Positions 12,167-63,866 of a DNA stretch of 64,000 nt are shown here, one piece after another. The position numbers and the translations under genes were made by a program. Position 1 is the stretch's first letter. Each line of letters starts with the position of its first letter. The notes beneath the pieces are model-generated. The model was not told the DNA's origin. It worked only from the letters and a program-made list of their open reading frames with translations, and ran no database searches. The stretch comes from Abditibacteriota bacterium (GTDB taxonomy: Bacteria > Armatimonadota > UBA5829): NCBI GenBank assembly GCA_942493375.1, contig OW818698.1, positions 6,082,139 to 6,146,138 on the forward strand, written 5' to 3'.

Positions 12167-12568
12167 CCTGTTTTGTCATGTATAGAGAATGCTAGTAGTA
12201 TACTGTGTGACAAACGGGAAAAGTCAATGAATGCCATTATAGTAGATGACTTGTATTGCATAAAATGAAGTCAATTGTGTGAAGTGCAATGGTGCATGCT
12301 TAGGTAATATTGCACTGTAGATAGGTGTATATCTTTAGACTGGCCTCGAAAAACACCTTAAATACTTTCGCAAATCTTTAAAACTCCCCTAAGTATTATC
12401 GCGACAAAACCAATCATATGATATGTATCTGCAATTGATACATAGTGGAGCGCATCGTATCTCGTAAGGGCATCATATTACATATATGCTTGCTGTGCAA
12501 GAAACTGCTGTCACTATGCAGATGCTGGAATGTGTTTTGTGCGTGAACAACTTTACAGGAGAACAAAA

Positions 12569-15500
12569 ATGAGGATGAACTCGATCAAACTACTGCCGAG
12601 GGTGCTTGGTGCATTTGTAATAGTGGCCGCTATTGCTGCTGCAATCGGCATTCAGGGTCTTTCCGGAATGGGTTTTGCTAATAAGTCATATGAAGCAGTA
12701 ACCCACATTCACATCCCCAGCAGCTCTGCAATACAGGCAATAAGAGCACAAGTCTTGTTTGCTCGGCTTGCAGAGAGAAGTCTCATAATACCTTCTCTGA
12801 ACGATAAAGTTAAAAATACAAATGTGAAGCGTTTCTCCTCAGCATTTAAGTTGCTGGAGGAAGCCCGCAAGAAATATGAATCGATTCCTCAGCAGAAAAA
12901 TGAATCAGCTGCTTGGAAGAAGTTTGGTCCAGCTTACGATGATTGGAAAGAAAAGATAGACACAGTTGTGGGTATGGCCAAAGCTGGGAAGTTTGTTGAG
13001 GCACAGGCATATTCTTATGGTGCGGCCAGGGATAGTTATAATGCTCTGAATGATGTGATTGACGAGATGGAAGCCATAAATACGAAAAGTGTCAGTCAGA
13101 ATCATCATGCGTTTGATGCTGCATATATTAGAGTCAAGAACATCATGACCGGCATTATCGTAATTGGTGTTCTTATTGCCGTTGCTTTCGGTATTGTTAT
13201 TGCTTTTGGTGTCTCGAAACCCATCATGGCAATTAGAAACGTTGCTAACCAGATTGCTTTAGGTGAAGTGGATGTAGAACTGAAACACGGCGGCAAAGAC
13301 GAAGTCGCCGATCTCACTCTGGCGATGCAACAGATGGTTGATGGTATAAAGGTCACTGTTGATGCAGCTGAACAGATATCCAAGGGTGACATGTCAGCGC
13401 ATGTAGAACCACGCTCTGACAAAGACATACTCTCCTACGCTATAAACAATGTCGTTGAATCAGTAAATGGACTTGTATCTGAAGCCACCATGCTTAGCAC
13501 AGCGGCTGTTCAAGGACGTTTGGACACCAGGGGAGATGCGGCTCATTTCGAAGGTGGGTTCCGGGATATAGTGGTCGGAGTTAACGAGACACTCGACGCT
13601 GTGATTGGACCTCTCAATGTTGCTGCTGAATATGTTGAACGGATCTCCAATGGCGATATACCTGCCAGGATTACTGACAACTATAATGGTGATTTCAATG
13701 AGATCAAAAACAACCTGAATAAGTGTATAGACGCGGTAAATATAATGACCGCTGATGCACAGATGCTGAGCATTGCAGCGGTAGCGGGATTACTCGATAC
13801 AAGAGCTGATGCTACTAAACATCAGGGAGATTTCAGGAAGATTGTTACCGGAGTCAACGATACTCTGGATGCAGTCATTCAACCTTTGAATGTTGCCGCA
13901 GAATATGTTGAACGGATCTCCAATGGAGACATACCGGTCAAGATAACAGATAATTACAATGGTGATTTCAATGCGATCAAGAACAACCTGAACAAGTGTA
14001 TTGACTCTGTAAACGCGTTAATAGCTGATGCGGTATTGCTCAGTGAAGCTGCTGTTGAAGGCAAACTCGATATTCGAGCGGATGTTACAAAGCACCAGGG
14101 AGATTTCCGCAAAATCGTTCAAGGTGTAAATGAAACACTAGACTCAGTCATAGGGCCTTTGAATGTGGCTGCTGAGTATGTGGAGCGAATCTCCAATGGG
14201 GACATCCCTGTAAAGATCACTGACAATTACAATGGCGATTTCAACGAAATCAAGATCAATTTGAACCGGTGCATAGATTCGGTCAATGCTCTTGTTGCAG
14301 ACGCAAATATGCTGAGCGGAGCAGCAGTTGAAGGTAAACTCGACACCAGAGCCGATGCAAGCAAGCATGGTGGTGATTTCCGCAAGATAGTAGAGGGTGT
14401 TAATGATACTCTGGATGCAGTCATCCAACCACTCAATGTTGCTGCTGAGTATGTAGAGCGGATTTCCAATGGAGATATTCCTCTCAAGATCACAGATAGC
14501 TACAATGGTGATTTCAATGAGATCAAAAACAACCTTAACAAGTGTATAGATGCAGTGAATGCTATGGTGAGTGATGCCGATATGCTCAGTGTTGCGGCTG
14601 TAGAAGGGCGACTAGACACAAGGGCCGATGTAGCCAGGCACGGTGGCGATTTCCGCAAGATAATCGAGGGAGTCAATAATACTCTGGACTCCGTTATAGG
14701 ACCGTTGAATGTTGCTGCCGAATATGTAGAGCGGATCTCGAATGGTGATGTCCCGGCTAAGATTATCGATAGCTACAATGGTGACTTTAACGCGATCAAA
14801 AATAACCTCAACAGATGTATAGATTCTGTAAATGCGTTAATAGTGGATGCATCTGAATTAAGTGATGCTGCTGTGCATGGAAGACTGGATACTCGAGCCG
14901 ATGCAAAAAGGCACCAGGGAGATTTCAAGAAGATCGTGGATGGTGTGAACCAGACACTGGATTCGATTGTTGGTAATCTGGAAGCTATACCATCACCGAT
15001 CCAGTTCATGGATATGAACCACAATATCCAGTACATAAACAAAGCAGGAGCACAGTGGCTTGGAAAGAGCAAAGAGGAACTCACTCATTGCAAATGTGCG
15101 GATGTTTGGAAGTCGTCTAATTGCGGGACGAAGGATTGCACATGCACAAATGCCGTGCAGATTGACGACAGTTACGAACACGCAAATGATACCCAGATTG
15201 GCGATAAGCACCTGGATATCCACTGTGTGGCAGCTCCTCTCAAGGACCAGAATGGGAAAATAGTAGGTGCATTCGAGTTCATTATTGACCAGTCTGAGGT
15301 CGTTAATACTGCTCGAGTGATTAAGAAAGTCGGTCAGTATCAGGATGCTGAAGTTGAGAAACTCAGATCTGCCCTGGCACAGTTTGCACAGCGCAACCTT
15401 ACAGTCAGTGTAGACACTGAATCTGCTGATGCTGATACATTGGACACCAAAGAAAAATTCGACATGATCGCAGATGCTTTCAACGATTGTGTTTCATCCA

Positions 15501-16672
15501 TGAGTAGTGTTATAGGGCATGTCGCGGAGGCTGCCACCAAAGTGGCTGATTCGACCTCAATGCTCTCAAAGACTGCCACCAGTGTAGGAGATGCATCTCA
15601 GCAGATCGCTGAGACGGTTGACCAGGTTGCTAAAGGATCTCAAGAACAGTCAAAGACTGTTATGAACAGTGCAGAAGCTATGGAGCAGCTGATGAGAGCC
15701 ATCGACGAAGTAGCGGCAGGAGCTCAAAACCAGGCTAAGCAGGTAGATGAGACTGTTGGACTTATTCAACAGATAACTGCTGCTATCGATGAAGTTGCAA
15801 AGAATAGTAACAATGTAGCCCATGCGAGTCGTCAGGTAAGTGAAGTAGCAGTTCAGGGTGGATTACAGGTTTCTAAGTCAGGTGAAGGCATGCTCAGGAT
15901 CAAGGATGCAACCGATAAGGTAGGCAGCATGGTCCAGCAACTTGGTGACAGTAGTAAACAGATAGGTGCTATCGTTGAAACTATCGATGATATAGCTGAA
16001 CAGACCAACCTGCTGGCCCTGAATGCTGCAATCGAGGCAGCAAGGGCAGGGGAACACGGCAAGGGGTTTGCAGTAGTTGCCGATGAAGTGCGTAAACTGG
16101 CTGAAAGATCCAGCAAGGCAACCGGTGAGATTGCTGATCTTATAGGTTCGATGCAGCAGATGATAACGGCTGCGGTATCGGGAATGCAGGACTCCGGTAA
16201 GTTGGTTGCTGAGGGAACTCAACTCTCTGTGGATGCTGGAGATGCGTTGAAGAGCATTCAGGGTGCAGTCGAGGGGATCGTTTCACAGATAGACAATATG
16301 GCTTCTGCAGCTCAGCAGATGTCTGCATCGAGTACAGAAGTTGTGAGAGCGATAGAGAATGTATCTGCAGTTACAGAAGAAACAACCGCTGCTGCAGAAG
16401 AAATGGCTGCATCCAGCGCTGAGGTATCCAGGCAGATAGAACAGGTAGCAGCTGTGAGTGAGGAGAATGCTGCCGCTGCGCAGGAAGTAAGCGCTACAAC
16501 CCAGGAGCAGACTGCTGCTGCTGAAGAGATGAGCGCGGGAACTGAGGATCTTTCAGGGATGGCTGTGGAGTTGAAGGAGCTTGTTTCTGAGTTCAAACTG
16601 GATGCAGATAGTGATACTCTAAAGAGTGTCACAAAAAAGGGTACCATACGGAATTCGCGCAAGGCTGCATAG
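12569..16672 (+). CDS. Methyl-accepting chemotaxis protein with a poly-HAMP repeat array and a Cys-rich PAS domain
   Basis: AGGAGA RBS before the ATG at 12569. TM1 is followed by a 4-helix-bundle sensor, then TM2, then a HAMP domain. Five to six tandem about 93-aa units follow, each with a HAMP-like core ([35 protein letters not shown]). Next is a PAS-like domain with HCKC...NCGTKDCTC...HC. The canonical MCP signalling motif [33 protein letters not shown] is present. Confidence 0.85.
13440..15000 (+). repeat. Intragenic tandem DNA repeat, about 279-bp period and about 5.5 copies, encoding the poly-HAMP array
   Basis: GCTGAATATGTTGAACGGATCTCCAATGG recurs at 13625, 13904, 14173, 14452 and 14722. 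Neighbouring units are roughly 80-85% identical at the nucleotide level. Confidence 0.8.
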
Positions 16673-27036: not shown

Positions 27037-28641
27037 TTATTTCTCCCAGTCCGGTCTTAACCTGTTCTGAGTTTCCCACAGGTCAAGTATCACAAGAGCG
27101 GACATTGATTCTATTACAGGGATGACCCTTGGGATAATGCAGGGATCGTGTCTCCCGAGCACACTGAGGTCGATATCATCACCGCTGTAAGTTGATGCCA
27201 GCTGGTTTGTTGAAACCGATGCAGTGGGCTTTATAGCAACCCTTATCAGGATCTCCTGGCCAGTGCTGATACCCCCCAGGATTCCTCCGGCATTATTGGA
27301 CTTAAATCCATCGGAACGTATAGGGTCGTTGTGCTGGCTGCCTCTCATCTTTACGCAGCTGAATCCTGAGCCTATTTCGAACCCTTTGACTGCACCCAGG
27401 CTGAGAATAGCTCTACCGATAAGTGCATCGAGTTTGTTGAAAACAGGATCGCCGAGTCCAGCAGGAACTCCATTTATCCGCAGTTCGATAATACCACCGA
27501 CTGAATCCCCGTCGTCTCGTGCAGATTCGATTGCCTTTATCATTTTTGGTGCTGCATTCGCATCAGCACATCTGACTGGATTGCGCTCGATTTCGTTGAT
27601 ATCAAAGCTTTCTGCACGAATACCACCCAGTTCCAATGCGTGAGCTGTAAATGTGACTCCTCTTGCAGCCATTATCTTCCTCGCCACTGTTCCACCAGCG
27701 ACTCTACCGGCAGTCTCTCTACCGGATGATCTTCCACCGCCGCGGTGATCGCGAATGGCAAACTTGCGCCAGAATGTGAAGTCAGCATGGCCTGGACGGA
27801 ATATCTCCCGCAGGTAGTCATATCTTCCTGAGTCCTGGTTGGTGTTTTCAATTACAAAGCATATAGGAGCGCCGGTGGTCCTACCTTCGAAGACTCCTGA
27901 TAGGATTTTCACTCTGTCAGGTTCATTCCTGGGAGTTGTTACGCTGCTCTGTCCAGGTCTTCTGCGGTCGAGTTCGGCTTGAATATCTTCTTCGGAGAGT
28001 TCGAGGCCTGGTGGAACACCATCCAGAACTGAACCTATCGCAGGTCCGTGGCTCTCTCCAAATGTGCTGACCCGGATTGCTTCTCCAATGGTGTTTGGTT
28101 CAGTTGTCCGCGTGGCCATCTCTTCAGATATACCATCGCTAACCTTCTCAGCAACTTCCACAGGAGTCAGTCCGGTAGTATCCACACATACATCCGTATA
28201 TGGATAAATAATCTCAATAGTCCGATCGAGTCTTTCGGTGAAGACTTCAAAACCGTTGTCTCCAGCATAGAATGGGGGAAGTCCACGACCTTTCATTCTC
28301 TCCCAGAGTATATCTTTATCTGCAGTGAGAAGCACGATGATGGATTTCTTGCGCAGGATTCTTCTGGATTCCGGGTTTACCAGCGCAGCACCACCGGTGC
28401 ATATAATCCGCCAGTCCAGGTCCTTGCAGGCCTCAACAGCTCTATGTTCCAGCTTTCTAAACGCAGGTTCACCTTCAGCCAGGCATATTTCCCTGCAGGT
28501 AGCCCGGGAACCAGTGTCTTCGGCGTAAATATCTTCAATCAGATCGTCAGTCTCAACAACACTCAGACCGAGTCTTCGGCTGACTTCCTGAGCAATTGTG
28601 CTTTTTCCGGAACCTTTGGGACCTGCAATTACTACCCGCAT
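27037..28641 (-). CDS. aroKC: Bifunctional shikimate kinase / chorismate synthase (AroK-AroC fusion)
   Basis: N-terminal P-loop VIAGPKGSGKSTIAQEVSRRLGL...ETDDLIE and the CTGGAA...LWERM lid are shikimate kinase. The C-terminal FGESHGPAIGSVLDGVPPGL...RRRPGQS...KILSGVFEGRTTG...FRPGHADFT...RGGGRSSGRET matches AroC nearly residue for residue. Confidence 0.85.
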   Translation of the reverse strand: MRVVIAGPKGSGKSTIAQEVSRRLGLSVVETDDLIEDIYAEDTGSRATCREICLAEGEPAFRKLEHRAVEACKDLDWRIICTGGAALVNPESRRILRKKSIIVLLTADKDILWERMKGRGLPPFYAGDNGFEVFTERLDRTIEIIYPYTDVCVDTTGLTPVEVAEKVSDGISEEMATRTTEPNTIGEAIRVSTFGESHGPAIGSVLDGVPPGLELSEEDIQAELDRRRPGQSSVTTPRNEPDRVKILSGVFEGRTTGAPICFVIENTNQDSGRYDYLREIFRPGHADFTFWRKFAIRDHRGGGRSSGRETAGRVAGGTVARKIMAARGVTFTAHALELGGIRAESFDINEIERNPVRCADANAAPKMIKAIESARDDGDSVGGIIELRINGVPAGLGDPVFNKLDALIGRAILSLGAVKGFEIGSGFSCVKMRGSQHNDPIRSDGFKSNNAGGILGGISTGQEILIRVAIKPTASVSTNQLASTYSGDDIDLSVLGRHDPCIIPRVIPVIESMSALVILDLWETQNRLRPDWEK

Positions 28642-53450: not shown

Positions 53451-53479
53451 TTGTAAAGCTGGCCCGGTTCTGGTACAAT
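53451..53479 (+). promoter_or_regulatory. Near-consensus sigma-70-type promoter upstream of 53521
   Basis: TTGTAA, a 17-nt spacer, then TACAAT, located 40 nt upstream of the ATG. Confidence 0.4.
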
Positions 53480-53520: not shown

Positions 53521-54261
53521 ATGGGTCGGAGGTATATATTGAAAGAGCAGTTGAAAACTGTCTATAAAATTCACTGCATCGATAAAAGAGCAGCTGTGCT
53601 TAAGGCGCAACTGGCTGAGATTACTGCGTCTGATGAGTTCAAAAGGAAGATGGAATCTGCGGATCGTGCCGTTGCTTCTACTACCGCGGACTTAATAAAA
53701 AAAGACGCCGATATCAAGGATGCTGAACTGAGGCTGAAGTCTTTAGAGACAAAGCAGGCAGACTATGAAAAGCGCTATTATGACGGTAGTGTGAAAAACC
53801 CAAAAGAGTTGACCGCGATTGAAAAAGAAATCCAGCTGTTGAAGCAGCAGAGGTCAAAGATCGATGGGGAATTACTGGCTCTTTATGAGACTGCTACTGC
53901 AATGAGGGAGAAGCTTGCAAAAGCATCTAATGCCTCTCAAGTCTGGCGTCAGAGATATGATGTTGCTTACAAAAAGGAAGGCTCAGCCCGCCATAAACTG
54001 GAAAAAGAGCTGGCATCATTGATGACAGCCCGTAAGTCCAGTGTGGTGAAGGTTACCAACAGGGAGCTGATCTCCAGGTATGAAGCCATATCCAAGCGAG
54101 TAGGGGACACCGGCGCGGCTCTTGTGGTGGATAACCGCTGTGAAGCTTGCCATGTTGCGGTTACACATTATATAACCAGGGCTCTTGAGTCCGGGACTAT
54201 ATATGAGACGTGTGAAAGTTGCGGCAGAATCCTGTTGAGTTCCAAGGAATGCTCAGAGTAA
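53521..54261 (+). CDS. COG1579 / DUF164-type coiled-coil protein with a C-terminal C4 zinc ribbon
   Basis: Long coiled-coil (heptad-rich with K/E/L) ending in CEACHVAV...CESCGRIL. 246 aa. Confidence 0.6.
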
Positions 54262-55685
54262 CCATACACACCGACGGCGCGTGCAAGGGAAATCCCGGGG
54301 ACGCTGGTGTCGGTGTGGTTATCAAGGATGAGACCGGCACAATAATCAGAGAGATAGCCGAATATATTGGAAAGACTACCAATAATGAGGCGGAATACAT
54401 AGCTTTATTGGTTGGTTTGAGGGAAGCTGTCCTGCTTGAAGCTTCGGAGGTTCTGGTCAAAACAGACTCCGAACTTATGGCCAGGCAGCTTAATGGTCAG
54501 TATCAGGTCAAATCTCCCAAACTCATCAACCTTTATCAGGAAGCAGTGGACGTCCTGAGAGGTTTTAAGAAAGCCAGGATAGTCCACGTCATGCGTGAAG
54601 AAAACTCCAGGGCGGATGCGCTGGCCAACGAAGGCGTCAAGAAAAAGAACAAGCCAAAACCAGCAGCAACAGCCAAAGAGCCAAAACCAGCAACTGCCCC
54701 CAAACCAATCGAACCAAAACCCAGGGTTGAAGCTGTAATTGCCGAAACTCCGAAGGCTGTTCTCAAAGAGCAGGCTGCTCCAACAATTTCTGCAATAACT
54801 GAAACCCCAACGTTTCCTACTGCACGCCTCAGTTCACCGTCAGGTTCAGAGCTTATCCTGGTCAATGGGGACTGTATTGCAGGTATGCGTTCACTTATAG
54901 ATGATGGCAGTATCGATGTCGTTGTTACTTCCCCTCCATACAATCTTGGAATAAGTTACAGTGAATATGATGATACTTCCTCCAGAGAAGAATATTTGCA
55001 GTGGATGGACGAATGGGCAATAGAAGTCAAAAGAGTCCTGGACGCTAAAGGGTCATTCTTCTTGAACGTAGGTTCCAAACCCACAGACCCGTATGTGCCG
55101 TTCGATCTGCTTGGAGTCATGCGCAAACACTTTGCATTGCAGAACACTATCTACTGGGTGAAGTCCATCGCTATTCTTAAATCTGAGGTTGGGAGCTATC
55201 CGGGCATCATGTCCGATGTCGTTGTAGGGCACTACAAGCCAATCAACAGCAAACGGTTCGTAAACGATTGTGCGGAGTTCATATTCCATTTTACTCACAA
55301 TAATGACGTAGAACTGGACCGGAAAGCTATTGGGGTCCCTTACCAGGACAAAACAAACATCAAGAGATGGGGTTCCGGGGAATCAGCAGTCCACTGCAGG
55401 GGCAACACCTGGTTTATCCCTTATGATACAATCAACAGCAGCGAAAAAGACCGCCCACATCCGGCATCTTTCCCAATAGATCTGCCAAGAAGATGCATCA
55501 CGCTGCACGGCAAAGAAAAAACCGGCAGAGTCCTGGACCCATTCCTGGGAATAGGCACCTCAGCCCTCGCCTGCGCTGAACTTGGAATAGACTTCATGGG
55601 CTTCGAAATGGCCGAAGACTACTTCGCAATATCAGAAGACCGAGTAAAATCCGCTTGCAAACCGGTTCCAACGCTGGACCTGTAG
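54249..55685 (+). CDS. RNase HI-like domain fused via a Lys/Pro-rich linker to a beta-class N4-cytosine/N6-adenine DNA methyltransferase
   Basis: RNase H: [14 protein letters not shown]...[10 protein letters not shown]...KTDSELM...NSRADALA (DEDD). Linker [28 protein letters not shown]. MTase: motif IV SPPY ([10 protein letters not shown]) lies N-terminal to motif I ([17 protein letters not shown]). The start overlaps the stop of the upstream gene. Confidence 0.75.
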
Positions 55686-55739
55686 AAACGTCCCGCAATT
55701 CCCCCGTGGCGAACAACCACAATCTTGGAGGGGGTTAGG

Positions 55740-55950
55740 CGGATTGATTCCTTCCCAACTCCGTTAGCCCTGAGTAGCCGTAGGCGTATCGAAGGGCGGC
55801 TGCGGAGAGCCATTCCCTTTAGTTCCTTCGGTTGTCGAGTGCAACGGAACAGCCGAAGTCGGACTAATACCACGTATGGTTACATGCGATCTGATGCCAT
55901 ATCTTCGGTAGTTCCACTTCGTTCGACTACCGAAGGAACAAAGCAGAGCA
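55740..55950. repeat. Modular hairpin repeat cluster (family 6, units A, B, C), copy 1
   Basis: Unit A arm TAGCCCTGAGTAGCCGTAGGCGTATCGAAGGGCGG. Unit B CTTCGGTTGTCGAGTGCAACGGAACAGCCGAAGTCGG. Unit C ATGCCATATCTTCGGTAGTTCCACTTCGTTCGACTACCGAAGGAAC. The same units recur at 56420-56510, 56788-56812, 58368-58425, 61995-62360 and 63706-63866. Confidence 0.8.
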
Positions 55951-55995
55951 AATCCTGAGAATGCAAAGAAACAGTTTGTTGAGGAACTTCAGTGG

Positions 55996-56397
55996 ATGTG
56001 CAAGAGCGGCTATAATGTCTATCTACAGCACCATGCATTCAAGCAGATTGGAAGTAACGGATGGCAGTCAGTTTCAGCAGAAATTGGAGAATTGAATTGG
56101 TTTATCTCGCAGGTGGACCGTCCTAATATAAAGATGGCTCTAGATTTAGGGCATATGGACCCTGCAAAAGACAACCCTGAAAAAATGGCAGTTGATTTGA
56201 AAGATAAGCTGGGAATGGTTCTCCTGAGCAGTTGTAAAACAGATTCCTATAACCAAAGCTACGATTCCCATTCTCCTGCAGCTCAACATTGGAAAAAGAT
56301 GCCCTGGCTTAAGAACACCGGAGTCCCCATCATCTTTGACGCTGACTATAAAAGCACATCAGAAGAATATGAGGACCTGGAACTGCTGGGGAATTGA
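55996..56397 (+). pseudogene. C-terminal fragment of a xylose-isomerase-like TIM-barrel (sugar phosphate isomerase/epimerase) gene. The 5' part is replaced by a family-6 repeat.
   Basis: IKMALDLGHMD and NTGVPIIFD resemble the beta-7/beta-8 metal-binding strands of AP-endonuclease-2/xylose-isomerase-fold proteins. Only about 133 aa are present versus about 280 expected. The frame runs upstream into the repeat. Confidence 0.4.
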
Positions 56398-56530
56398 TGA
56401 GATTTATATAAATGAGCAATGGAACTGCCGAAGTCGGGTTTCGACATCGTATGTTTACAAGTGATCTGAGACCCCATCTTTGGCAGTTTGGCTACCGAAG
56501 GAACGCAGAGACGTGAGGGATATATAAAGT

Positions 56531-56788: not shown

Positions 56789-56923
56789 TTTTGCTCCTTC
56801 GGTTGTCGGGTACCGCACAATGAACTGTTACATGAATTAGTAATATACTATATTAAGGATTACAATAGACAGCACAGATGCTGCAGATTATTATATGCCA
56901 TTATCAGAAAGGAATGTGAAATC

Positions 56924-58111
56924 ATGAGTATAACTCCTGAGGAAAACAAACCAAACCCCGAATGCAATTGTCCGAAAGATAAACCCGAGATTTTAAGTAT
57001 TATACAACAAGCGGCTTTTGCAACTGATACGATTGCCGATCCCTTTGCAGGCAGTGAACCACCGCGTATTTCTAATCGGATTTTAAATTATCGCCGTATC
57101 CAGCCTTGGGAGAACTACTTCCTCGCTTCAGCCATTTGTTCGGTGGCAATTGCGAAAGGAGCAGATGAAGAAGCTTTAAAAACTATCGGGCGAGAAAAGG
57201 TCAATAACGGGTTTCATTTTTTCTCTGCCATCACAGGCGATATGTTCACAGTGCTTTATGCAACCGATAAGCCCTCTGACAGCGGTATTACCAATTATTT
57301 CTTTATGCCCCAGGTTGTAAAGAAAGCATATGCAGCATTCGGTTATGACTGCATTTATCTGTCGAATGCACAGATTCGAAAAGATTTCGGAGCAGCGATG
57401 AATGCCATCAAAGCTTCTGTGGACAAAGGCATCCCGGTGCTGGCATGGGGTATGGGTAATGTGACAATGGGAAATGGCAATCACTGTGATCTGATGCCGG
57501 AAGGGTGCCTGATCGGCGGGTATGATGAAAACGACCTGCTGTATGTCAATCTTTATCCGGGACCGGACCGAGTGACTGTGGACGACGACGGATACACCGC
57601 CATTATCAATGGACTTGATAACACATATGGACTGTTCTTTGTAGGTGATCCAATACAACAGCCGGATTTGGGTAGAATCTATCGAATGGCGATTGATAGT
57701 GTTCCCTACTTCATGGCATTACCGCCAGCCGACGGATATGTGTTTGGGCAGACAGCCTTTGAGAAATGGGCGGACACACTTCTTGATGAAAGCCGATTTG
57801 CGGATAAGACCGATGAGGAATTGGGCGGCATCTGTTGGGATTTACACTGTTCACCCTACTGTAACGTATCTACCAGTGCAGCGGAAATATTCGTCCGGGC
57901 TGGCGCAGAGTTATACAATATAGAACCTGCAAAAGAACTGCTGCCGTTATACGGAAGATTCACACAGCTGCGACAGGAAATATGGACTCTGCACGGCGAT
58001 TTCTTCCCACCGATGGACAAATTCAGAACACGAGAATTCCGCAGCAATATTGCCGAAATACTGAGGCAAATTGGTGGAGTTTGCAGCGAAATACTTGAAG
58101 TATTTAGCTAA
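56924..58111 (+). CDS. Hypothetical 395-aa protein, possibly of the BtrH-N/DUF4872-like peptidase fold. Very tentative.
   Basis: N-terminal CNCPKD Cys pair. Intact ORF between repeat blocks. Confidence 0.3.
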   Translation: MSITPEENKPNPECNCPKDKPEILSIIQQAAFATDTIADPFAGSEPPRISNRILNYRRIQPWENYFLASAICSVAIAKGADEEALKTIGREKVNNGFHFFSAITGDMFTVLYATDKPSDSGITNYFFMPQVVKKAYAAFGYDCIYLSNAQIRKDFGAAMNAIKASVDKGIPVLAWGMGNVTMGNGNHCDLMPEGCLIGGYDENDLLYVNLYPGPDRVTVDDDGYTAIINGLDNTYGLFFVGDPIQQPDLGRIYRMAIDSVPYFMALPPADGYVFGQTAFEKWADTLLDESRFADKTDEELGGICWDLHCSPYCNVSTSAAEIFVRAGAELYNIEPAKELLPLYGRFTQLRQEIWTLHGDFFPPMDKFRTREFRSNIAEILRQIGGVCSEILEVFS

Positions 58112-58367
58112 TCTGAGCTCATTTTGGTGTTTCGGCAGTTTAATTAAAAGGTGAGGAAGGGTGAGGGTAAAGAGTGAGTGGACTGCCACCTTAAATTAGC
58201 ATGTTCGGAAGCAGGGACAAAAGCTGAGGCAATCTTGAATGATTCGCCTTAGCGCAGACGGCGGTTTCGGGACTTCCGGGTTGGGTATAGGTTAGTGATT
58301 ACTCCGGTAGATAGTTATCCAACCCTCAAGTTCCCGAAACACCAACAGTGTAACTACAAATGATCCG

Positions 58368-58425
58368 ACGCCATATCTTCGGCAGTTCCACTTCGTTCGA
58401 CTACCGAAGAAACTCGAACCCCAAA
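58368..58425. repeat. Family-6 unit C hairpin copy
   Basis: TGATCCGACGCCATATCTTCGGCAGTTCCACTTCGTTCGACTACCGAAGAAAC. Confidence 0.75.
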
Positions 58426-61994: not shown

Positions 61995-62360
61995 CCCGTT
62001 AGCCCTGAGTAGCCGCAGGCGTATCGAAGGGCGGCTGCGGAGAGACCAACCCGGTAGGTCGTGTACAACCGACCGCCCTTCGATACGCTGCGCTACTCAG
62101 GGCTAGCGGGATTATTTTGTTACTTCGGTTGTCGAGTGCAACGGAACAGCCGAAGTCGGGTTTGTAATCAGTGTGATTGCAAATGATCTGACACCCCATC
62201 GTAGGCAGTTCGACTACCAAAGGAATCCTGTTTTAGTTACTTCGGTTGTCGAGTGCAACGGAACAGCCGAAGTCGGACTAATACCACGTATGGTTGAATG
62301 TGATACGACGCCGTATCTTCGGCAGTTCCACTTCGTTCGACTACCGAAGGAACGCCGCTT
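61995..62360. repeat. Family-6 modular repeat cluster (A palindrome plus 2xB plus 2xC), the largest copy
   Basis: A near-perfect 35-bp-arm palindrome (TAGCCCTGAGTAGCCGCAGGCGTATCGAAGGGCGG...CCGCCCTTCGATACGCTGCGCTACTCAGGGCTA), then two B units and two C units. Confidence 0.8.
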
Positions 62361-62395
62361 TCCCTTCCTGAAGCCTAAAGCCTGAAGTCTGAAGC

Positions 62396-63628
62396 CTATT
62401 CTCTGTCAGTGAGAGTGCCAAAATTTCTCAGGCGTGGAAAGGCCAGTGACCAGATACCCACAACCAATAGTGTGCCGATTCCGCCGACAACTACTGAGAG
62501 TTTGGGGGTCATATACTGGGCTGTAAGTCCGGATTCCAAACCGCCGATTTCGTTCGACGAACCTATAAATACATAATTCACGGCAGACACACGCCCAAGC
62601 ATGTCGTCCGGTGTGAGCATAAGCATCAGAGTCCTGCGCACTACGACACTTATGTTATCAAGTGCGCCGGTGAGGAAGAGCATTATCCATGACAGAACAA
62701 AATTGTGTGAAAGGCCAAATACTATGGTTGCCAGGCCAAAACCGGCAACCGCAGTAAACATTGCACGACCAGCATTCCGCATCGGTGGTAAATGGGCTAA
62801 CAAAACAGCCACAATAAATGCGCCTGCTGCAGGTGCTATGCGCAGCAGTCCAAGACCGTGTGCACCGACATGCAGGATGTCTTTTGCAAAAACAGGGAGC
62901 AGATAGACCGCACCGCCAAGCAATACAGCGAAGAGATCGAGCGATATTATACCAAGCAGCAGTTTTGTTTTCCATACAAAACGCGCTCCAGCCAATAAAT
63001 TCTGCATCGACATTGAGCCTACAGATACACTGGATTTTATCGGAATTGTGAGAAGTAGCACGATATAAATCATTCCAAATACTGCAGTCGTAATATATAC
63101 AGCTGTTATACTCCAGGTTATGATTACTGCACCTAAAGCAGGACCTGCTACCGCAGCTATTTGAAATAAACTAGACTGCCACTTTACAGCATTTTCTAAT
63201 ATTTCCGTCGGAACCAATAATGGAAAGATAGACTGAGACGAAGGGCGCTGTAAAGTAGCAAATGAGGCGTCCATAAAAAGGAGTATATACATCAGACGAA
63301 TGGAGCCATGTCTTGCGGAGACATATGCCAGTCCGAGGGAACAGAGTGCTACACCCATTACACAGACTGCAGTAACAGTTCTCCTGCTATACCTGTCTGC
63401 CAGGTAACCAGCAGGCAGGCTCAAAATGAGCATTGGAATAGCTTGAATTCCGCCGACCAGTCCCAGATCCAATGGACGACCAGTGCGGGTATATATATCC
63501 CATCCGATAGCAAGTCCCTGCGCACCTAAGCCAATCTGTAATAGCAGATTGCCAAACATATATCGCATGAGGGTTGGTATACGAAAAGCAGCGTATGGGT
63601 TGTTTGTTGCAGGAATTTTATCGGACAT
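62396..63628 (-). CDS. MFS transporter
   Basis: Twelve predicted TM helices. The MFS motif-A-like sequence GYLADRYSRR lies after TM2. 410 aa. Confidence 0.75.
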   Translation of the reverse strand: MSDKIPATNNPYAAFRIPTLMRYMFGNLLLQIGLGAQGLAIGWDIYTRTGRPLDLGLVGGIQAIPMLILSLPAGYLADRYSRRTVTAVCVMGVALCSLGLAYVSARHGSIRLMYILLFMDASFATLQRPSSQSIFPLLVPTEILENAVKWQSSLFQIAAVAGPALGAVIITWSITAVYITTAVFGMIYIVLLLTIPIKSSVSVGSMSMQNLLAGARFVWKTKLLLGIISLDLFAVLLGGAVYLLPVFAKDILHVGAHGLGLLRIAPAAGAFIVAVLLAHLPPMRNAGRAMFTAVAGFGLATIVFGLSHNFVLSWIMLFLTGALDNISVVVRRTLMLMLTPDDMLGRVSAVNYVFIGSSNEIGGLESGLTAQYMTPKLSVVVGGIGTLLVVGIWSLAFPRLRNFGTLTDRE

Positions 63629-63705: not shown

Positions 63706-63866
63706 TTGCTTCGGCAGTTCCACTTCGTTCGACTGCCGAAGGAACGAAAATGCCCGTTAGCCCTGAGTAGCCGCAGGCGTATCGAAGGGCGACTGCGGAG
63801 AGCCCACCCGGTAGGTCATGCACAACCGACCGCCCTTCGATACGCTGCGCTACTCAGGGCTAGCGG
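63706..63866. repeat. Family-6 repeat (C unit plus A palindrome), followed by a T8 run
   Basis: TTGCTTCGGCAGTTCCACTTCGTTCGACTGCCGAAGGAACG then the A palindrome, then ATGTTTTTTTTGG. Looks like a bidirectional terminator. Confidence 0.75.

Follow-up and report, generated by a model that had tools for sequence, protein, structure and literature searches.

Among described systems, the nearest to the locus reported here is found in mycobacteria, where a COG1579 gene lies directly 5′ of an RNase HI gene (Rv2229c-Rv2228c and MSMEG_4306-MSMEG_4305, the latter RnhC; PMC7466739, PMC5947703), the operon of M. tuberculosis holding Rv2229c together with Rv2228c, an RNase HI-CobC fusion (PMC7466739). A second set of relevant systems comprises the orphan methylases CcrM, M.BceJIV and the cyanobacterial M.Ssp6803II (GGm4CC), which share a beta-class fold, the absence of a cognate endonuclease, lineage-wide conservation and housekeeping neighbours; M.BceJIV and M.Ssp6803II have been described as orphan regulators (PMC11380664, PMC11662147). 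Here, we analyze a locus of an Abditibacteriota bacterium (Armatimonadota) that combines both of these known types, an RNase HI with a partner fused at its C-terminus and an orphan methylase, in a single predicted protein. It is located in a 64,000-nucleotide (nt) stretch of contig OW818698.1 (assembly GCA_942493375.1), hereafter the window, whose numbering is used for all positions not tied to another locus; L-numbers and P-numbers are labels for the loci and proteins of relatives.

As in the mycobacterial pair, a COG1579 gene lies directly 5′ of an RNase HI of the same subfamily, which carries a second enzyme at its C-terminus and whose predicted fold matches 3hst at about 1 Å root-mean-square deviation (rmsd). 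Unlike in mycobacteria, the partner is a predicted DNA methyltransferase and not a CobC-like acid phosphatase, and no Nif3 or CobC genes occur upstream in the window, where rpiB and glyA are found on the opposite strand. The methyltransferase half resembles the orphan enzymes CcrM, M.BceJIV and M.Ssp6803II in all four features listed above, but it has an SPPY instead of a DPPY motif, is fused to RNase HI as none of them is, and shows only 22-27% identity to solved members. The rotifer N4CMT and M.PvuII have the same fold as well as the TSPPYN and HPAxFP motifs; nevertheless, overall identity is low at 20-27%, a chromodomain is present in N4CMT, and M.PvuII is part of a restriction-modification system. 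DnmA of B. subtilis is likewise an orphan methylase, limited by RNA:DNA hybrids and found near the replisome (PMC9973331), but it is of another methyltransferase class and architecture, being unfused, and its link to hybrids is regulatory, not physical.

The fusion open reading frame (ORF; 54249-55685, + strand) has no internal stops and encodes 478 amino acids (aa) from the ATG at 54249, which is the more likely start, or 488 aa if translation begins at the TTG at 54219. The RNase HI domain (54249-54650, + strand; aa 1-134) matches the Pfam families RVT_3 (2e-25, 89.3 bits) and RNase_H (1e-12, 48.6 bits) at aa 4-130, both over the cutoff, and its residues D9, E49, D73, and D123 align with the catalytic residues of LC11-RNase H1 (3u3g) and Rv2228c, the aligned 4h8k entry deviating at the third DEDD position (D to N). 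Sequence matches in the PDB are 3u3g, 3hst, and 4e19. In a structure predicted with AlphaFold2 from a balanced 40-sequence alignment, the domain has a predicted local distance difference test score (pLDDT) of about 95, and Foldseek superimposes it on 3hst (Rv2228c RNase H) and 4e19 (Halobacterium RNase HI) with an rmsd of 0.9-1.0 Å and target-normalised TM-scores of 0.92-0.95. The N-terminal half is predicted from these matches to be a type 1 RNase H of the Rv2228c-N, LC11, and Halobacterium subgroup. The best NCBIfam RNase H model is PRK07238, of which only profile positions 3-232 of 378 are covered, at 129 bits against a cutoff of 326. An RnhC-type RNase HI/acid phosphatase was rejected because no CobC-like histidine-phosphatase domain is present and the C-terminal half matches PF01555 instead.

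The C-terminal half forms a putative beta-class amino-methyltransferase domain (54804-55658, + strand; aa 186-470), matched by Pfam N6_N4_Mtase (PF01555) at aa 222-463 (150 bits, E-value 1e-43) and by the PADLOC model MTase_II (3e-108). It contains motif IV, TSPPYN (54927-54944, + strand; aa 227-232), an HPASFP motif (55458-55475, + strand), and motif I, DPFLGIGT (55536-55559, + strand; aa 430-437, with FLGIG at aa 432-436). The class assignment follows from the position of motif IV N-terminal to motif I. Both by sequence and by Foldseek, the domain matches M.BceJIV, the rotifer N4CMT, and M.PvuII. The combination of SPPY and HPASFP is like that of N4CMT (SPPY and HPAPFP) and unlike that of M.BceJIV and CcrM (DPPY and HPTQKP), suggesting that the enzyme probably makes N4-methylcytosine in DNA.

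Between the two domains, a Lys/Pro-rich linker of about 50 aa (54651-54803, + strand; aa 135-185) is predicted to be disordered, the model showing a stretch of low pLDDT (about 34) at residues 135-183, within the Lys/Pro-rich segment of about aa 131-185, between two domains at about 95. Many stand-alone RNase HI relatives bear similar low-complexity C-terminal tails rich in K, P, and R, and the linker is derived from such a tail. We also observe, in the linker-coding DNA, an imperfect 26-nt tandem direct repeat at 54652-54704 (AGCCAAAACCAGCA...), which is consistent with an expansion of the linker by slippage.

The gene directly upstream (53521-54261, + strand) encodes a 246-aa member of the COG1579/CT398-HP0958-Rv2229c family, with an N-terminal coiled-coil hairpin and a C-terminal C4 zinc ribbon. 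The Pfam family CT398_CC matches at 38.6 bits (cutoff 27), and Zn_ribbon_9 at 24.7 bits, under its 29.1 cutoff, the CEAC...CESC cysteines (CxxC...CxxC) being present nonetheless; the nearest NCBIfam model, that of chlamydial CdsZ, matches weakly. The stop codon of this gene (TAA, 54259-54261) is reached 13 nt into the fusion ORF, and the resulting overlap (54249-54261, + strand), read directly as ATGCTCAGAGTAA, is identical in L084 and L088, while the same ATG-N9-TAA geometry is found in L006 (66% identity). Because AAGGA abuts the fusion ATG without any spacer and the COG1579 stop lies inside the fusion ORF, the arrangement suggests that the fusion is probably translated by termination-reinitiation coupling to COG1579. 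A promoter-like site (TTGTAA, 17-nt spacer, TG-TACAAT; 53451-53479, + strand) is located 5′ of the COG1579 gene and is divergent from a promoter-like site of rpiB; this is weak evidence from a consensus scan, in which such sites were no more numerous in the window than in shuffled sequence.

The original prediction, made from the DNA alone, had described a complete DEDD RNase HI domain joined through a Lys/Pro-rich linker to a beta-class methyltransferase with SPPY ahead of FxGxG, behind a COG1579 zinc-ribbon coiled-coil gene whose stop overlaps the fusion start. The Pfam matches, the four aligned acidic residues and the fold, the predicted disorder of the linker, the motif order, and the 13-nt overlap agree with each part of this description, and no overlooked stop separates the two domains. 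The rarity of the architecture, which that prediction implied, is confirmed as well, the searches below showing that it is not a widespread, annotated housekeeping arrangement.

The fusion is genuine, rare, and limited to one small clade. It is present in five assemblies from two lineages, one represented by the window, L084, L088, and L089 (96-97% aa identity), which share the same 478-aa ORF, the other by L006 (66%), with a version of 474 aa; the COG1579 gene overlaps upstream in all of them. A search of 5.8 billion protein clusters returned two other full-length fusions, P0001 (97%) and P0002 (66%), the remaining strong matches being stand-alone methylases of about 290 aa with 61-70% identity, of which the named ones all come from Armatimonadota. 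Among the top 150 matches of an exhaustive HMMER search against 1.84 billion representative proteins, there was no additional fusion of RNase H to a methylase, the multi-stretch matches being tandem methylases or tandem RNase H domains. A search of genome contigs with the whole fusion recovered mainly loci with a distant RNase HI and, from Planctomycetota, methylases of 26-30% identity, and none of the close methylase orthologues. A limited literature search brought up no earlier report in which RNase H is fused to a DNA methyltransferase, nor any on the methylomes of Armatimonadota.

Compared with L088, which is about 90% identical in nucleotide sequence, the window shows codon differences that are mostly synonymous in the RNase H domain (37 synonymous, 2 non-synonymous) and in the methylase domain (65 and 5), as opposed to the linker (11 and 9), which indicates strong purifying selection on both domains and a drifting linker under relaxed constraint. 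The COG1579 gene shows 53 synonymous and 5 non-synonymous differences.

Each half of the fusion has stand-alone relatives in the same phylum. Armatimonadota RNase HI orthologues are 135-180 aa long with 55-66% identity, and those of L080-L083 immediately follow a COG1579 gene, the two overlapping by 4 nt. Beyond these Armatimonadota loci, the loci obtained from the contig search with the whole fusion show the order COG1579 then RNase HI in Bacillota, Deferribacterales, Desulfurella, WOR-3, and Actinomycetota. Since this order recurs across phyla, the COG1579 coupling represents an ancestral operon and not a peculiarity of the window locus. In L082 and L083 (3465-6408), rpoN, encoding sigma-54, lies directly 5′ of the COG1579-RNase HI pair, next to a sigma-54 activator gene and fliM, which is notable because CT398 and HP0958 have been reported to bind RpoN (PMC5947703). 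In L023 and L018, the gene upstream of RNase HI codes for a LON substrate-binding-domain protein and not for COG1579; L023 (8001-9098), from the Armatimonadota metagenome-assembled genome SKYB17, further shows an RNase HI fused to ribulose-phosphate 3-epimerase (365 aa).

The stand-alone methylase was found in five contexts, next to hisI, overlapping recR, next to the gene for DAHP synthase (aroF; twice), and convergent with ruvB, without an adjoining endonuclease gene in any of the five. In L004 (5417-6876), the methylase overlaps recR in the order dnaX-ybaB-recR-methylase, and in L086 (5001-6928) it overlaps the DAHP synthase gene by 4 nt. The stand-alone orphan methylase is embedded in housekeeping operons, and a predicted orphan methylase of the beta class is conserved phylum-wide in Armatimonadota. 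In GCA_050948905.1, a distance of 1.6 Mb separates the methylase gene from the COG1579-RNase HI pair, and the fusion is accordingly the derived arrangement; in the fusion lineage, the resident orphan methylase gene has been joined in frame to the 3′ end of rnhA.

The C-terminal endings of these proteins provide the part of the finding that is best worth testing. The bacterial clamp-binding motif is Q-phi-x-[LM]-x-[FL], as in E. coli Pol III alpha, which ends in QVELEF, Pol II (QLGLF), and Pol IV (QLVLGL) (PMC11139829). RNase H and methyltransferases are both absent from the clamp partners mentioned in a 2024 review. Among the stand-alone Armatimonadota RNase HI proteins P0271-P0347, we observe a clade whose basic, proline-rich tail, 20-40 aa in length, terminates exactly in Q-[GRK]-x-L-x-[FL]; others, such as that of L080 (6001-6444), are tailless. 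Of the 72 RNase HI relatives that are 150 aa long or more, 52 end exactly in Q-x-x-[L/M/F]-x-[L/F/I/M], where the internal frequency of the pattern predicts 0.08. In the 64 relatives with tails of at least 20 aa, Gln occupies position -6 in 55, Leu position -3 in 48, and Phe, Leu, or Ile position -1 in 54, while the mean identity of the 12 residues before the motif is just 11%. Such a conserved ending behind a divergent stretch suggests a short linear motif on a disordered tail. We consider it a candidate sliding-clamp-binding motif, of which we found no description for bacterial RNase HI. The RNase HI homologues of other phyla in the locus set do not have such tails.

A similar motif (QRKLDL, QVKLEL, QLGLDF) or an ending of the L-P-F type is found in 29 of the 118 stand-alone methylase orthologues. 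The fusion itself ends in ...CKPVPTLDL and a stop (55659-55685, + strand), like the Q-x-K-L-D-L endings of stand-alone orthologues; the last six residues, VPTLDL in the lineage of the window and SGTLPF in P0002, keep the hydrophobic positions 4 and 6, and this L-x-L/F ending is possibly a degenerate clamp-binding motif. By inspection, no relic of the clamp-like hexapeptide of RNase HI is present in the fusion linker. The tails of the stand-alone RNase HI and of some methylases are like those of the clamp clients Pol III alpha, Pol II, and Pol IV in being disordered and ending exactly in Q-x-x-L-x-F/L. We tentatively suggest that the RNase HI and the orphan methylase of Armatimonadota might both be sliding-clamp clients through these tails, and that the fusion might be a replisome-tethered enzyme that clears hybrids and then methylates, a proposal that we regard as doubtful. 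Coupling of this kind is known in eukaryotes from DNMT1-PCNA and RNase H2-PCNA. If the proposal is true, the Armatimonadota proteins would be a bacterial counterpart, and the first example in bacteria of a DNA methyltransferase or an RNase HI bound to the clamp.

For the fusion as a whole, we lean toward a housekeeping role, in which two enzymes with the predicted activities cooperate on newly replicated DNA from within a chromosomal operon. The RNase HI half would clear the RNA of primers or R-loops, hybrids being poor methylase substrates, and the tethered methylase would then modify the restored duplex. The L-x-L/F ending, presumably derived from the Q-x-x-L-x-F/L of the stand-alone relatives, would recruit the protein to the sliding clamp, and the locus would stand outside restriction-modification or defence. 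In B. subtilis, the orphan methylase DnmA is kept off the nucleoid by RNA:DNA hybrids, which it binds poorly, and it concentrates at the replisome (PMC9973331); its displacement when hybrids accumulate offers a plausible reason for pairing a methylase with RNase HI. The RNase HI of E. coli reaches the replisome via SSB (PMC11253446). Such a fusion would link hybrid removal and post-replicative DNA methylation, which are usually studied separately, and together with the clamp-like tails it yields a concrete hypothesis for testing, in which DNA methylation would be tied to replication in a little-studied phylum, for which a phylum-wide orphan methylase (probably producing N4-methylcytosine) is identified here.

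Several observations weigh against this cooperative role or parts of it. The endings of the fusion, VPTLDL and SGTLPF, do not have the Gln of the clamp motif, and position 2 of the motif in the RNase HI relatives is mostly Gly or Arg, also Lys, and not aliphatic, unlike in the E. coli clamp clients. M.BceJIV, which among solved relatives is closest to the methylase in both sequence and fold, methylates adenine at N6, and the assignment to N4-cytosine, made from motifs alone, is suggestive and short of proof. Moreover, a fusion need not mean cooperation, as RNase HI of the same family is joined to unrelated enzymes in L023 and in mycobacteria, and the domains of the mycobacterial fusion with a CobC-like phosphatase are functionally dissociated (PMC7466739).

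This last point leads to the main and serious rival, a neutral or co-expression-driven fusion in which the methylase gene landed 3′ of rnhA, the intervening stop was lost, and the two domains work independently. The promiscuity of the RNase HI family, seen in the RNase HI-Rpe protein of L023 and the RNase HI-CobC protein of mycobacteria (PMC7466739) and in other long ORFs in the locus survey, fits this explanation, as do the long, disordered, fast-evolving linker and the restriction to one small clade. Nevertheless, lineages that have diverged to 66% identity still retain the fusion with its two domains, its linker, and its L-x-L/F ending, and both partner families, which act on DNA, independently bear the same type of C-terminal motif; we view a neutral origin as possible, though less probable than cooperation. 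The RNase H domain could also serve as a targeting module that steers methylation to R-loops or primer-containing hybrids, as RNase HI binds RNA:DNA hybrids and a methylase on a flexible tether of about 50 aa would stay close by. However, none of the four catalytic residues has been lost and all are under purifying selection, so that a hybrid should be destroyed and not marked, which makes targeting less likely than hybrid clearance; stand-alone methylase orthologues occur without an RNase H domain, and a characterised orphan methylase binds hybrids poorly (PMC9973331). We hold this explanation to be improbable. An artefact of assembly or sequencing, such as a missed stop, a frameshift, or a chimeric join, has nothing in its favour except the rarity of the architecture; it is effectively excluded by the recurrence of the fusion in independent assemblies, four with the uninterrupted 478-aa ORF and a fifth with 474 aa, with many synonymous differences between them.

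The original prediction had further proposed that the fusion and the genes at 55.7-58.1 kb could form a small defence or epigenetic island. A restriction-modification, anti-phage, or epigenetic island might be suspected from the PADLOC match to a Type II methyltransferase (3e-108) and from the uncharacterised genes downstream. In a PADLOC search, however, the methylase alone was returned, through MTase_II and oMTase models, the JetC matches of the COG1579 protein being weak and spurious consequences of its coiled coil, and no neighbouring gene has a defence match by PADLOC, Pfam, or NCBIfam. The downstream gene content is not conserved with the fusion among relatives of 90-94% nucleotide identity, the 395-aa ORF downstream comes from a widespread family that is sometimes fused to AraC-type domains, and the stand-alone methylase orthologues have housekeeping neighbours in five contexts. 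We consider this reading very unlikely and largely refuted, and the fusion of no value as a defence-system lead. Two other claims about the surroundings stand: there is no cognate restriction endonuclease in the window flanks, nor in the five stand-alone contexts, as expected for an orphan methylase, and the region downstream is indeed disrupted by repeats, which lie at deletion breakpoints.

On the upstream side, the COG1579 gene is preceded on the opposite strand by rpiB, identified by Pfam, and glyA, whose SHMT label is supported by Pfam labels on syntenic relatives. Further upstream, a WecA/MraY-like transferase gene and a UDP-GlcNAc 2-epimerase-like gene were read from ORF translation alone. 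Downstream, synteny with L084 and L088 stops at 55702 and 55755, about 20-70 nt past the fusion stop. Compared with L088, about 5 kb (three genes) are missing there from the window, and another ~7 kb are missing beyond the 395-aa ORF. What is left at 55940-56493 is the 3′ end of a gene for 972 aa, whose complete form is found in L088 (6946-9864), and this explains the weak AP_endonuc_2 (TIM-barrel) match of the 133-aa ORF at 55996-56397; this ORF is a deletion scar and not an island gene. The 395-aa ORF (56924-58111) has no Pfam domain, and its hypothetical family, with members at 52-91% identity, is widespread in Armatimonadota, Clostridia, and Anaerolineae. Fusions to AraC-type helix-turn-helix domains occur among the members, others carry the label C39 peptidase-like, and the ORF may encode a ligand-sensing module.

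A dispersed palindromic intergenic repeat has a copy at the synteny break (55819-55942, strand unassigned), at the end of the conserved unit and outside the operon. Its locations in the window are 55819-55942, 56416-56504, 56789-56811, 58250-58413, 62113-62399, and 63709-63741, with the core CTTCGGYAGTTCCACTTCGTTCGACTRCCGAAG, of which four copies with at most 2 mismatches are found, and none in shuffled sequence. Where the window and L088 differ by 5 kb and 7 kb, copies mark the breakpoints, which suggests that an element resembling a repetitive extragenic palindrome (REP) or a miniature inverted-repeat transposable element (MITE) drives local deletions downstream of the fusion. Rfam and tRNA scans of the whole window gave no matches. 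Elsewhere in the window, a 534-aa ORF (27037-28641, - strand) joins shikimate kinase (aa 10-168) in frame to chorismate synthase (aa 189-521), a further case in this genome of pathway enzymes fused to each other, and a 1380-aa methyl-accepting chemotaxis protein (12530-16672, + strand) contains at least six HAMP_2 repeats and a PAS domain.

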